A DNA stretch of 43,729 bases from a virus (lineage: Duplodnaviria > Heunggongvirae > Uroviricota > Caudoviricetes). This document shows positions 2,846-35,175 of the stretch, one piece after another. Position 1 is the stretch's first letter; each line of letters begins with the position of its first letter. The translations under genes were made by a program, and so were the position numbers. The stretch lies in IMG/VR virus record IMGVR_UViG_2711768013_000010, one strand, 5' to 3'. A model generated the notes under the pieces. The model did not search any database. It saw only the letters and a list, made by a program, of their open reading frames with translations, and had not been told where the DNA came from.

Positions 2846-4018
2846 TCACGATGTGCGAATAAAAAGCCCGGGCATTGCGCCAGAGACATGAGCATCCGGC
2901 ACCCCGGACAGGGCGCTATATGACCCCGGTAATGAATGCTCTGAACATCCCGTAATGAAAAATTGTGGGGATGCTATATACGTTCCGGTGGGAGTACTGG
3001 GCACTGAAATCCCCACCGGTCCCAGTCGTGAGCCTCTGTATGACTGCCCCCTGACAAGTCTGATGACTTTATCACCGTCAGCTTCTCCCTGGTACGCAGC
3101 AATAATCAGCCCGCCAATGTCAGGGTCTCCCCATCTGTTGCAGACAGAGCTCGCCACGATTCTGTAAATAATATCTTCTGTGGTTATATTTATTTTCACC
3201 CAGCCAGTCAGTCTGGATATGGGCCAGTAGCAGTAGCGGGTGTGATAAATGGGGCCGTTAATGCCGTAAAAAGTAAGGGATTTGGCTCTGTACCTCGGTT
3301 CTGTTGTCTCAGGGCGTGCATCAGTCCACCGGATGCTGAGCACCCCTTCAAACCGTGTGTCGGGTATGATGATGTCGTAGGGGCCAGCAACGGAATATTC
3401 ACCTGGCAGCGCATTCCTTACCCAGGCCAGGAAATCACTCTTAGTGTCAAAACGGATAACATCTTCAGGCAGAAAAGCACACCCAAAGCCGAATGCGCCG
3501 GGTATCGCCAGACGGCCTTTTGTCCGGTCGTAAATGTCGCTCTGTGCTTCCATCGTGGCCGCACTTTTCAGCCCCAGATTATCCCGGGACTTCTGTTGTG
3601 CCTTTTCGCCTGCTGCTGCGATTTCAGACAGATGGTTAGCCGTTTTCAGAGTGCCGGTCAGCGCAGCATCAATGTCATTTTTGGCCTGCTCTGCTGCGCG
3701 GGCATAACCTGCGGCTGCCGCCACATCCTGCGCCGTCTGCTGTGCGTTTCCGGCTGCGGCCCCGGCGCTCTGCTGCGCCTGCGCCACCATTTCCTCAAAG
3801 CGTTTGACGACATCCGGTTTCAGGTCGCCCTCATCAGGAGCAATCAGAAAGTCATTCAGCGTGCCGGGCTTTGAGTCGTCGTATACAGCAATGTCGCCAA
3901 CGTTGTACTCGTTGTGCCAGCCCGGTTTCAGATACACACCATATTTTCCAGTCCGCGCATGGAAACAGTATTCACCATCGTTTCCTGTCATCACATCAGC
4001 AACAGTGTGCATCACCAC
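2846..4018 (-). CDS. side tail fibre protein, C-terminal portion (N-terminus apparently removed by IS66 insertion)
   Basis: 390-aa ORF with Ala/Gln-rich coiled region and C-terminal receptor-binding-like part; reading frame stays open upstream through 4019..4075 into the putative IS terminal repeat, i.e. no native start. Confidence 0.6.
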   Translation of the reverse strand: MVMHTVADVMTGNDGEYCFHARTGKYGVYLKPGWHNEYNVGDIAVYDDSKPGTLNDFLIAPDEGDLKPDVVKRFEEMVAQAQQSAGAAAGNAQQTAQDVAAAAGYARAAEQAKNDIDAALTGTLKTANHLSEIAAAGEKAQQKSRDNLGLKSAATMEAQSDIYDRTKGRLAIPGAFGFGCAFLPEDVIRFDTKSDFLAWVRNALPGEYSVAGPYDIIIPDTRFEGVLSIRWTDARPETTEPRYRAKSLTFYGINGPIYHTRYCYWPISRLTGWVKINITTEDIIYRIVASSVCNRWGDPDIGGLIIAAYQGEADGDKVIRLVRGQSYRGSRLGPVGISVPSTPTGTYIASPQFFITGCSEHSLPGSYSALSGVPDAHVSGAMPGLFIRTS

Positions 4019-4035
4019 TTCCGGGGTGTTTACCG

Positions 4036-4616
4036 TAAGCGTGCAGCAAGAACCGTATTGACGGGAATGTGTTATTCAGTCGGCAGTGCTACGCGCCAGG
4101 GGAGCAGTTCGCCGACCCGGTTTATCGGCCAGTCGGCTATGACGTCAAGGACATAGCGGAGGTAGCTTTCTGGCTCCACTCCGTTCAGTTTGCACGTCCC
4201 GATCAGGCTGTACAGCAGCGCTCCCCGCTCTCCTCCATGATCCGAACCGAAGAACAGGTAGTTTTTGCGGCCCAGACTGACCATCCGCAACGCATTTTCA
4301 GCGATGTTATTGTCCGCCTCAGCCCAGCCATCATCTGCATAGTACGTCAGCGCCGGCCACTGGTTCAGGGCATATGCGAACGCTTTCGCCAGTTCTGAGT
4401 GTCGCGACAGGGTTTTCATCTTTTCACGCAGCCAGCTTTCCAGGGATTTCAGCAGCGGTTTCGTTTTCAACTGACGTTCGGCAAGGCGCTGTTTCAGCAG
4501 GAAGATGTCGTCAGAAGAGATGTCGTTCATAAGCCCGTATTTTACCGGGCTTATTCTGTGACAACCAGGATAAAGAGATTTACAGCATGGTCAGGGAGGT
4601 CAGCAGCCGCTTAGGC
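4036..4616. mobile_element. IS66-family insertion sequence, right-end fragment (putative terminal inverted repeat + transposase 3' part)
   Basis: GTAAGCGTGCAGC.. at ~4036, the typical start of IS66-family terminal repeats; contains the TnpC C-terminal fragment; joined at ~4617 to the Mu-like prophage right end. Confidence 0.6.
4072..4530 (-). pseudogene. IS66-family transposase (TnpC/orf3), C-terminal fragment
   Basis: 152-aa ORF recognised as the C-terminal region of IS66 transposases; an in-frame stop at ~4582 upstream and no N-terminal ~330 aa anywhere in the window. Confidence 0.7.
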
Positions 4617-4637
4617 TGTCTATAGCGCGGCGATTTT

Positions 4638-4703
4638 TTTGATACCGATTTGCATTTCATTTGATACCGCTGAAAAACGCCGATACGCAACTTATTTGAT
4701 ACT
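4638..4703. repeat. right-end transposase-binding-site candidates: three copies of TTTGATAC(C/T)
   Basis: TTTGATACCG at ~4638 and ~4660, TTTGATACT at ~4695; mirrored by three inverted copies at the left end (42944..43099). Confidence 0.55.
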
Positions 4704-4748
4704 AAATCGGCGCTTTTCTTTTGAGTTTTAGAATGAGTTTTTAAGCGT

Positions 4749-33121: not shown

Positions 33122-33544
33122 TCAGAAAAGCCGTGGCTGCGTGCGTTCCTGATGCAGGCGACGCTGGTTGCGGATAACGGAGTAAATCTGCGTCTCTGAC
33201 ATCTGGTAGTGGCGGCGCAGGGTTTCAATTTTTTCGCCCTGGCTCCAGCGGGAAAAAATTTCATTATTGCGCAGTTCGGTGAAAAGGGATTCACCGACCG
33301 GGAGATAATAACCACGCCCGCCCATGTACCCGGCCTGTGCGGCTGCAACCTTACGGGCAAGCATTCCCGCCTGAGCAGGTTCAATCCCCTGACGGTGCAG
33401 TTCAGCACTGATCACATCAACCAGGTCCCGCAGCGTGCCGGGCCAGTTCTTTTTCAGCTCATCATCAGGAATATCATCCAGACGGTCAATCAGCGCGTGC
33501 AGCTGTTCGCTGTCACCAAACATGCTCATCTGTGTTTCAGCCAT
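33122..33544 (-). CDS. Mor/C-family late transcription activator
   Basis: 140-aa ORF of Mor/C size and family by recognition, between gemA and the lysis genes; only one member of the family found. Confidence 0.8.
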   Translation of the reverse strand: MAETQMSMFGDSEQLHALIDRLDDIPDDELKKNWPGTLRDLVDVISAELHRQGIEPAQAGMLARKVAAAQAGYMGGRGYYLPVGESLFTELRNNEIFSRWSQGEKIETLRRHYQMSETQIYSVIRNQRRLHQERTQPRLF

Positions 33545-33579: not shown

Positions 33580-33608
33580 AAAATAAAAATCCCGCGCTGT
33601 GGCGGGAT
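33580..33608 (-). terminator. intrinsic terminator (ATCCCGC-loop-GCGGGAT + T-run on minus strand)
   Basis: 7-bp GC-rich stem, 6-nt loop, followed on the minus strand by TTTTATTTT; immediately 3' of gemA. Confidence 0.5.
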
Positions 33609-33614
33609 TTGGGG

Positions 33615-34127
33615 TTAACGGGGGAATGATTTTTCATACAGCCTGCAAACACGCTCATAACTCATCACTGCACGTTCCGACATATCCAGGGCTGCCAGCA
33701 TTTTGCGGCGGTGCCAGCGTTTGAGACGCTCCAGCACATCAGAGGCCAGCGCGGGTTGTTGCTCCAGCCACTGCCAGTTAGCCACACCTTCGCCGTCGTT
33801 CTGCGCGGCCGTCTGCGATTTCACCCAGCGGTTAAGGGCCGTTTCCCCGCCATCAGAGATAAATCCCTGCCGGTGCATCACTTTCCAGATGGCGCGAATT
33901 TTGGCGGTCACCGTACCCGGTTTTAAGGCCCGGTTAACCGGCTTCTGACGCACTTTAAAACCGCGTTTTTTGAAAACATCCAGCACGCGGGATAACTCAC
34001 CGGGTGACATATCACGGCAACTGGATTTGCCGGTGGCTGCCAGCAGCGCGGATGTATAGGTATCATGGTCAAGCTGTAGATCGCGTTTTGCGACATGTAT
34101 TAAGGTAATCAGGGAAGCGCGATTCAT
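33615..34127 (-). CDS. gemA: GemA-like regulatory protein (Mu gp16, DUF1018)
   Basis: 170-aa ORF recognised as Mu GemA-like; upstream of Mor/C gene. Confidence 0.8.
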   Translation of the reverse strand: MNRASLITLIHVAKRDLQLDHDTYTSALLAATGKSSCRDMSPGELSRVLDVFKKRGFKVRQKPVNRALKPGTVTAKIRAIWKVMHRQGFISDGGETALNRWVKSQTAAQNDGEGVANWQWLEQQPALASDVLERLKRWHRRKMLAALDMSERAVMSYERVCRLYEKSFPR

Positions 34128-34197
34128 TATCGTGGCTCCATAAAAAATGGGCGGTGTTACCGCACCGCCATGTCAATTAACATAAAAGGAAAAATCT

Positions 34198-34437
34198 ATG
34201 TCAGATATAAAAAATGCACTTGATGTTGCCGCATTCACAATGGCTGGAAATCTTATGGTAACCCTGTTCGATAAGGGGCTGATTTCCCGTGAGGAGGCAA
34301 TACATATTATCAATCTCGCTCAAAAAAACTCTACCCCGGAAAATGCAGAAGATATCCAGGATGGCTCATATATTAATACCGACTGGCATTTCGACAATCT
34401 CCGGGCCTGTATGGGGATTACCGCTGAAAAAGATTAA
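34198..34437 (+). CDS. hypothetical small protein, opposite strand to the prophage operons
   Basis: 79-aa ORF with Shine-Dalgarno AAAGGA ~8 nt upstream; AT-rich; converges on and overlaps the 3' end of the next gene by ~20 nt. Confidence 0.45.
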   Translation: MSDIKNALDVAAFTMAGNLMVTLFDKGLISREEAIHIINLAQKNSTPENAEDIQDGSYINTDWHFDNLRACMGITAEKD

Positions 34438-34720
34438 AAATTTTTGCATAATGTTCAGATGTAAGAATTGCTGAACCATCAACACCGAGCCTACGGCGAA
34501 CGTATTCCTCGCGGGCTATTTTATTATCCAGAGATACAGCATCCTTAATCAGGTTAATCTCCCGCTCCATTATCAAAAGGGCTTCTCTGGCTGCAAGATT
34601 TTCTTTTATCGCATATTCGATAATGTCCCGCATACGTTCAAGCATGCCGATTTTAGCCAGTTCTTCGTCGATAGATTTAGGCGCAAATTTGATTTCTTTT
34701 TCCATATTATTCATCCTCAC
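34418..34720 (-). CDS. hypothetical coiled-coil protein
   Basis: 100-aa ORF, AT-rich, GTG start with alternative ATGs 2 and 5 codons in. Confidence 0.5.
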   Translation of the reverse strand: MRMNNMEKEIKFAPKSIDEELAKIGMLERMRDIIEYAIKENLAAREALLIMEREINLIKDAVSLDNKIAREEYVRRRLGVDGSAILTSEHYAKIFNLFQR

Positions 34721-34850
34721 AATTTATACATGCAGTGTCGTCGCCCATATCGCAGTGGTTACATTTTATCTCACCACAATGTGGGCACTCTTTCAGATAC
34801 TCCGGGTCCTCATTTCCACAGGTGGGACATTCAACAATTTGCTCATCCAT
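34707..34850 (-). CDS. small Cys-rich zinc-ribbon protein (47 aa), not in ORF track
   Basis: Hand-translated minus-strand ORF MDEQIVECPTCGNEDPEYLKECPHCGEIKCNHCDMGDDTACINCEDE with paired CxxC motifs; start overlaps upstream gene stop by 8 nt; coordinates +/- 2 nt. Confidence 0.4.
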   Translation of the reverse strand: MDEQIVECPTCGNEDPEYLKECPHCGEIKCNHCDMGDDTACINCEDE

Positions 34851-35175
34851 TATGTATCCCCTGTAATTCCGGCAAGGCCGAAAGATGGCACCAGTGCGTC
34901 ACCTGTCCGTCCTCATCTTCAAGGCAGGCTCCGGTTTCTTCATCAATAAAAAAGCCTTCATACCCCATATGGCCGATGCGCAGTTCCTGTTGGTCACCAT
35001 ACTGAACAATCAGCACGACAGCCTCCATATCAGGCGGAAATGCGTCATCCAGTGAATGCCAGGGATAACCGCGCAAATCCCCGAAATAAACGCCGGTCAG
35101 CGTTCCGCCACAGAGCGGCATTCCGGCGGCACACACAAGAGGTTCATCTGATTCAACAAATAAGGTCGTTATCAT
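34843..35175 (-). CDS. hypothetical acidic protein
   Basis: 110-aa ORF in the early accessory block. Confidence 0.55.
   Translation of the reverse strand: MITTLFVESDEPLVCAAGMPLCGGTLTGVYFGDLRGYPWHSLDDAFPPDMEAVVLIVQYGDQQELRIGHMGYEGFFIDEETGACLEDEDGQVTHWCHLSALPELQGIHNG

Follow-up and report, generated by a model that had tools for sequence, protein, structure and literature searches.

The question raised by this locus is why the early operon of a Mu-like prophage should hold a small open reading frame that points the other way and runs tail to tail into its neighbour, and what such a convergent pair might do. The window, that is, the whole stretch of DNA analysed (43,729 nt; IMG/VR record IMGVR_UViG_2711768013_000010), comes from an E. 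coli Mu-like prophage whose early operon lies on the minus strand. That strand carries the genes for the Mor-family protein (33122-33544), GemA, Gam, a MuB-like ATPase and the Mu transposase, and a repressor-side gene near 42325 lies on the plus strand. As the early genes all share the minus strand, the plus-strand frame of 79 residues (ORF79) is alone among the genes of the early region in pointing against the operon. The features of the locus are as follows.

34198-34437, plus strand: ORF79, homologue of Mu gp15 (Mup15), 79 aa with an ATG start
34185-34190, plus strand: Shine-Dalgarno sequence of ORF79, AAAGGA, 7 nt 5' of the ATG
34418-34705, minus strand: ORF95, homologue of Mu gp14/E15, 95 aa; the original prediction used a 100-aa version starting from a GTG at 34720
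34418-34437, both strands: tail-to-tail overlap of the ORF79 and ORF95 coding sequences, 20 nt in the ORF list
34488-34527, plus strand: predicted intrinsic terminator of the ORF79 transcript, inside ORF95 codons 60-73
34140-34169, minus strand: terminator-like early-strand hairpin that separates the ORF79 start from the gemA Shine-Dalgarno sequence
34707-34850, minus strand: zinc-ribbon ORF, 47 aa, homologue of Mu gp13/E14, directly upstream of ORF95 and in the same cassette
33615-34127, minus strand: gemA (Mu gp16 family; Pfam GemA, E 1.8e-28), the next early-strand gene past the hairpin
34100-34860, no strand: low-GC exchangeable cassette holding the gp13-like, gp14-like and gp15-like genes and the hairpin

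The locus had been described as a convergent, 3'-overlapping gene pair in an AT-rich stretch, and this description is borne out: positions 34418-34437 are common to 34198-34437 on the plus strand and 34418-34720 on the minus strand, and GC content is 0.39-0.43 over 34100-34800 versus 0.51-0.60 on both flanks. The overlap, which is 20 nt here, 32-98 nt in nine other lineages and missing only in the degraded L034, encodes C-terminal tails that in both proteins are poorly conserved and modelled with low confidence. The minus-strand member, originally taken to be a 100-aa ORF, is a real gene, but its start is most likely the ATG at 34705 rather than the GTG at 34720. The ATG is favoured because a GAGGA Shine-Dalgarno sequence is present at 34714-34718, because it lies 1 nt past the stop of the upstream 47-aa ORF, a gp13 stop to gp14 start spacing identical to that in Mu, because it is used by PGAP in identical RefSeq copies, and because the N-termini of all homologues agree with it. 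In one such identical copy (L003; NZ_AP022815.1), the PGAP annotation omits the 47-aa zinc-ribbon ORF.

The pair corresponds to genes 14 (E15) and 15 (Mup15) of phage Mu and occupies the accessory part of the early region, immediately before gemA-mor. When searched by tblastn, ORF95 matched Mu, D108, SfMu and Yersinia Mu-like phages at 47-57% identity (E 1e-18 to 1e-22), with 49-57% identity to the gp14 proteins of Mu, D108 and SfMu (E about 1e-21 for Mu and D108), and it was assigned to phrog_6075 (E 5e-44). The RefSeq genome of Mu (NC_000929.1) annotates Mup14 (7655-7957, plus strand) and Mup15 (7896-8162, minus strand) as converging, overlapping genes immediately before gemA, and SfMu_15/SfMu_16 are annotated likewise. 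ORF79 was assigned to phrog_32893 (E 1e-45), which is also matched by Mu gp15 (phrog_8747; 6e-4) and by the 119-aa D108-type homologue (phrog_38610; 5e-7), and a profile search recovered the Mu-type members P0042, P0028 and P0030. As the pairwise identity between ORF79 and Mu gp15 is about 19%, the homology link between the two runs via intermediates; at the level of structure, the ORF79 model gave a weak Foldseek match to the Mu left-end ORF Q38493 with a TM score of 0.62. The adjacent 47-aa ORF carries four CxxC motifs, has weak zinc-ribbon Pfam matches, falls in phrog_5584 (E 3e-26) and has Mu_13 at the same position in Mu, and the gemA product is named 'gp16 family protein' in RefSeq. It had originally been held that nothing in the two sequences identifies either partner; the tblastn, PHROG and RefSeq results overturn this, identifying both as homologues of Mu gp14/E15 and gp15.

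Genes 14 and 15 of Mu, like their equivalents in SfMu and D108, resemble the window pair in encoding homologous proteins and in lying after the zinc-ribbon gp13 gene and before gemA, and the Mu genes share with it the convergent 3' overlap, the embedded terminator and the hairpin before gemA. They differ in that the overlap is 62 nt in Mu versus 20 nt in the window, that ORF79 belongs to a 'WHLDNL' subtype and Mu gp15 to a Mu subtype, and that the T-run following the early-strand hairpin is much better in the window than in Mu. The pair is already known in RefSeq Mu, uncharacterised; the embedded terminator and the evidence for gp15 over a competing annotation, Mu_54, are useful by-products of the present analysis. 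A search of the accessible literature on the function of Mu gp14 or gp15 found nothing, the PHROG matches of the pair were to families of unknown function only, and a scan of species-representative genome contigs with the gp14 profile recovered no relative.

Comparison of alleles and homologues shows that both ORF79 and ORF95 are protein-coding genes under purifying selection. When computed among close alleles with 88-99% DNA identity, dN/dS for ORF79 was 0.22-0.36 in its own frame, the lowest of the six frames and comparable in scale to the values of 0.26-0.41 for ORF95 and 0.24-0.47 for gemA, versus 0.5-2.4 for the other five frames. ORF79 is conserved as a protein where the DNA stops aligning: an opposite-strand gp15-like ORF of 73-119 aa faces a gp14 homologue in at least ten lineages, with gp14 identity falling to 23-30%, and the convergent overlap was found in the window, Mu, SfMu, L005-L008, L019-L022, L030, L031 and L033. 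The plus-strand ORF is conserved in related prophages, as the original prediction required. Its relatives share the motif FDxAAFxLAGNxLxxLVxKGxIxxxEA, with WHLDNL in one subtype, and a purine-rich Shine-Dalgarno sequence lies at the same site before the gp15-like gene in all aligned lineages. A profile search of 1.84 billion representatives placed the gp15 family at about 25 clusters of 67-91 aa proteins, and in all retrieved contexts of clear members the gene lies opposite to its neighbours and converges with a gp14 homologue (29-43% identity); the exception to this context is a remote match, P0051, whose homology is doubtful. The convergent gp14/gp15 layout is kept in L031 although the downstream gene there is not gemA.

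About five ORF79 variants in public assemblies are frameshifted, and the gene is therefore dispensable in at least some prophages. These frameshifts (P0005 and P0007-P0010) fall after residues 43-53, some of them at an A7 run (34318-34326), and all enter one alternative frame, which runs for 61 codons without a stop (34289-34474); the variants may reflect errors in sequencing or true pseudogenes. In two IMG/VR contigs (L011 and L012), ORF79 breaks off at nt 61/62 (contig position 3447) and runs into gp46/gp47-family baseplate genes of the same prophage; the junction reflects a misassembly or the internal loss of about 21 kb.

ORF79 has a predicted terminator of its own, and it is written inside its partner. 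On the ORF79-sense strand, a stem-loop (34488-34517) is followed by ATTTTATTAT at 34518-34527, 51-90 nt beyond the ORF79 stop, and this predicted terminator is coded by codons 60-73 of ORF95 (NKIAREEYVRRRLG). Folding recovered the same element in 10 of the 10 lineages examined. When its 11 base pairs are scored in the ten lineages, the stem shows pairing in 93.6% of cells and four base pairs in which both partners have changed in a compensatory manner, for example from C:G to U:A in a change linked to an Arg-to-Glu substitution in gp14. The observed covariation score was matched by none of 500 shuffles, and slid controls gave 37-50% pairing. The presence of 17 G·U cells makes the stem strand-specific: when read on the gp14-sense strand, 79% of cells are paired and the tail holds 2-5 T, versus 5-8 T on the gp15-sense strand. 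In L005 and L019 a terminator scan picked out the site on the gp15-sense strand, and TransTermHP annotates it in Mu at 7839-7873. Among the ten, the stem of the window is the least stable, having two mismatches and a folding energy of -10.8 kcal/mol. A terminator that is kept by selection on the ORF79-sense strand constitutes indirect evidence that this strand is transcribed. From the terminator and the Shine-Dalgarno sequence, we strongly infer that ORF79/gp15 is a self-contained, backward-facing, single-gene transcription unit.

The early strand carries a second hairpin, between the ORF79 start and gemA. Read from 34169 to 34140 on the minus strand, it consists of GGCGGTG-CGGTAA-CACCGCC followed by CATTTTTTAT, with the stem-loop part at 34150-34169, as identified by scanning and folding. 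A GC-rich hairpin lies beside every gp15-like gene, built from three different stem sequences, and the variants in L005 and L031 contain a U·G pair that is valid on the early strand only. Where the cassette has been replaced, in L002 and in the common O157:H7-type prophage L036, the hairpin is absent. An early-strand hairpin with a T-run thus always accompanies the gp15 gene. The T-run in Mu is poor (CCCTTTCC) and the Mu GenBank record places a 'semi-early promoter' for gemA over the hairpin region, so that the hairpin could serve as a stem-loop at the 5' end of the gemA mRNA instead of as a terminator.

Two further structures were observed on the early strand. In L005 (3505-3585), the complement of the gp15 Shine-Dalgarno sequence pairs with the gemA Shine-Dalgarno sequence around the hairpin, with a minimum free energy of -29.2 kcal/mol and z = -3.7; this modelled pairing, which is not obvious in the window, could occlude translation of gemA on long early transcripts. 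In the window, a strong terminator-like hairpin (33587-33610, minus strand), with a 9-bp stem followed by TTATTTTAAA, occupies part of the 70 nt that separate gemA from the Mor-family gene. These two genes overlap in Mu, and the hairpin in the gap here suggests separate transcriptional control of the Mor-family gene.

A search for the promoter of ORF79, using both a scan tool and a relaxed scan within 170 nt upstream, found no sigma-70-like site in eight of ten lineages, and the isolated matches in the remaining two lie at positions that are not conserved. These scans were for sigma-70-like sites, and non-canonical or activator-dependent promoters would escape them. The hairpin and the gp15 ATG are separated by only 26-33 nt.

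The two transcripts had been proposed to be mutually antisense at their 3' ends, and the positions of the terminators predict that they are, well beyond the 20 nt of shared coding sequence. Transcripts from the early promoter would run antisense through the whole of ORF79 before meeting the hairpin, and the ORF79 transcript would run antisense into the last third of gp14 and end there, so that the two RNAs are predicted to be complementary over about 330-390 nt. Synthesis of each RNA would antagonize that of the other through polymerase collision and the formation of RNA duplexes. Under such an arrangement, production of the ORF79 protein would be largely confined to times of low early-operon activity and would be shut off under strong early transcription.

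Layouts of this kind have precedents in other regulatory systems. The lambda oop RNA, which opposes cII, and the P22 sar RNA, which opposes ant, are convergent antisense transcripts of temperate phages. Each is a short convergent transcript over the 3' part of an early gene, as the ORF79 transcript is predicted to be, and the logic proposed for them is one of RNA pairing and transcriptional interference, which for ORF79 would be an extrapolation from the layout. They are non-coding RNAs, in contrast to ORF79 with its conserved protein product, and share no sequence relationship with it. Excludons are long antisense transcripts that silence an opposite gene while serving as mRNA for neighbouring genes. 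The early polycistronic RNA would be excludon-like in this sense, being the mRNA of its own genes and, as predicted from the terminator positions, a full-length antisense to ORF79; however, excludons were defined for divergent bacterial operons from transcript maps, whereas the window pair is convergent.

The composition and predicted structures of the two proteins were also analyzed. Structure prediction, which had been suggested as a check on the pair, returned helical models for both proteins but no significant Foldseek match in PDB or BFVD. The AF2 model of ORF95 has a pLDDT of 87.8 and four helices, one of them 35 residues long, and that of ORF79 has a pLDDT of 73 and three helices. Both proteins are acidic and predicted to be soluble and helical, and neither is hydrophobic or membrane-like (GRAVY -0.23 for ORF79 and -0.29 for ORF95). 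The pI of ORF79 is 4.5, and those of gp15 family members range from 4.3 to 5.8. Profile searches of both proteins against PDB sequences gave nothing below E 0.07, and Pfam, PADLOC and Rfam searches on the pair gave no useful match, with no defence system among them. The ORF79 motif LxxLxxKGxISxEEA resembles the repeat unit of SHOCT/DUF2680 proteins, which the gp15 family profile also picks up, but the likeness is limited to this motif of about 20 residues, and ORF79 did not reach the Pfam threshold for SHOCT/DUF2680, its small relatives scoring at best E 0.16 for SHOCT_2. We also considered ORF79 as a helix-turn-helix DNA-binding regulator of a divergent gemA promoter and rejected this, as the putative recognition helix is acidic and the pI is 4.5.

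The two proteins evolve at different rates. Identity is lower for gp15 than for gp14 in 42 of the 45 lineage pairs compared (means 27% versus 43%), and between the window and L007 it is 19% for gp15 and 67% for gp14. Alleles of the two genes are also found in new combinations, L014-L017 carrying a window-like ORF95 together with an L001-like ORF79; such reassortment speaks against two proteins closely adapted to each other, as a toxin and its antidote would be. The ORF79 product is small, acidic and fast-evolving, with three predicted helices, and most likely works through binding to another protein. Overall, the explanation that we favour, with modest confidence, is that the window pair is the counterpart of Mu genes 14 and 15 in which the backward member forms a unit with its own predicted terminator, that the two transcripts are mutually antagonistic, and that the product of the backward gene binds another protein.

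The foremost alternative is that ORF79 is an accessory, moron-like gene that happens to be reversed, the overlap and antisense relationship having no regulatory role. This is rather improbable in our judgement. In its favour, the cassette is low in GC and exchangeable, gp15 alleles reassort relative to gp14 alleles, as seen in the window/L007 comparison and in L014-L017, and the overlap falls in poorly conserved, low-confidence C-terminal tails. The cassette allele of the window is present in 14 of 5426 complete E. coli genomes and the gemA type with which it is associated in 231, and the slot is therefore an exchangeable accessory position. In L002, a Mu-like element inside an Stx2c phage, the place of the gp13-gp14-gp15 cassette is taken by about 1.2 kb of small, co-directional and unrelated ORFs (3501-4707), and unrelated co-directional small ORFs also occupy this slot in O157:H7-type prophages (L036); the bounds of the cassette were set from alignment breakpoints against L002. 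The cassette thus shares with prophage morons the character of a low-GC insert, polymorphic in its presence or absence, that lies inside a phage operon with its own intrinsic terminator, here that of ORF79. Morons are, however, sporadic insertions, whereas the gp14/gp15 unit is an old and conserved part of Mu-like genomes. As to the promoter that a moron carries, the sigma-70-like scans found no site for ORF79 in eight of ten lineages, and a non-canonical or activator-dependent one may exist. As the gp15 terminator is physically embedded in gp14, the two genes would always travel together even as a moron-like unit. Set against an incidental reversal are the retention of the orientation, the convergent partner and both hairpins down to a gp14 identity of 23-30%, which is much for a layout without a role, and the specific association of the early-strand hairpin with the presence of gp15.

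A bolder extension of the antagonistic-transcript model can also be envisaged, in which the gp14/gp15 block and its two facing terminators form a conserved convergent switch of Mu-like phages. Transcription of the backward gene, acting with the early-strand terminator, would gate the early transcription that reaches gemA-mor and so time the middle phase, and gp15, produced in the lysogen or very early, would serve in exclusion or anti-defence. We consider this speculative and unlikely. Should the convergent layout govern entry into gemA-mor, or should gp15 prove to be a conflict protein expressed in the lysogen, this would constitute a new regulatory layer in Mu-like phages; otherwise, the locus would be an ordinary accessory gene pair.

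The original prediction had offered a toxin-antidote or exclusion module as one interpretation of the pair, and a module of this kind, with abortive or exclusion activity under antisense control as in type I systems, now appears quite unlikely. The convergent overlapping layout does resemble that of antisense-controlled modules, the two genes co-occur strictly, and gp15 evolves fast, being less conserved than gp14 in 42 of 45 lineage pairs, as expected of conflict genes. There is also a precedent in a Pseudomonas Mu-like phage, in which overlapping opposite-strand genes have exclusion activity (PMC9936078), and the pair might conceivably serve in exclusion. Nonetheless, the Pfam, PADLOC and PDB sequence and fold searches that failed to match either protein yielded no toxin or antitoxin domain, and the genes are convergent rather than co-directional, so that they are not co-transcribed in the manner of type II pairs. 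Neither is there a small hydrophobic membrane-active peptide of the type I kind, both proteins being acidic, with negative GRAVY values, and predicted to be soluble and helical. The exchange of gp15 alleles relative to gp14 shows no sign of pairwise co-adaptation, and disrupted copies of ORF79 stand beside apparently intact partners, which an essential antidote would not tolerate. The toxin-antidote part of the earlier interpretation thus finds no support in the Pfam and PADLOC searches or in the nature of the proteins, and allele reassortment speaks against it.

The status of ORF79 as a gene also bears on a conflict between database records. The updated Mu record (AF083977.1) lists an early-strand ORF, Mu_54 (7960-8127), in place of gp15 (7896-8162 in NC_000929.1), and the D108 record (GQ357916.1) has nothing annotated at this site, yet D108 encodes a 119-aa gp15 homologue there. 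We examined Mu_54 as a candidate for the true gene and rejected it: in the window, the early-strand frames are interrupted by 2-7 stops, their dN/dS is 0.5-2.4, and no conserved counterpart was found in other lineages, the only match being a weak mirror match in L007. At the level of comparative sequence data, the opposite-strand gp15 is favoured over Mu_54. That ORF79 is not a gene, the conserved element being non-coding (a 3' UTR or antisense RNA) or the true gene being Mu_54 on the early strand, would accommodate the Mu and D108 records, the frameshifted variants and the failure to find a promoter, but is very improbable given the stops and dN/dS of the early-strand frames, the poor conservation of Mu_54, and an opposite-strand frame that is open for 73-119 aa in every lineage, with conserved motifs and a Shine-Dalgarno sequence in each.

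These results correct the annotations of Mu (AF083977.1), D108 and PGAP. Mu is a paradigm phage whose accessory early region is largely unexplained, and the only backward gene of that region has been removed from its current GenBank annotation. The comparative evidence indicates that this backward gene is real, that it is always paired with gp14, and that its predicted terminator is written in the reading frame of its partner.

The slot has also been entered by insertion sequences on two occasions, by IS1A in E. coli 2012EL-2448 (L028) and by ISKpn26 in E. coli S1-CAM-01-A (L037). The IS1A copy sits exactly at the ORF79-side edge of the hairpin and parts ORF79 from gemA.
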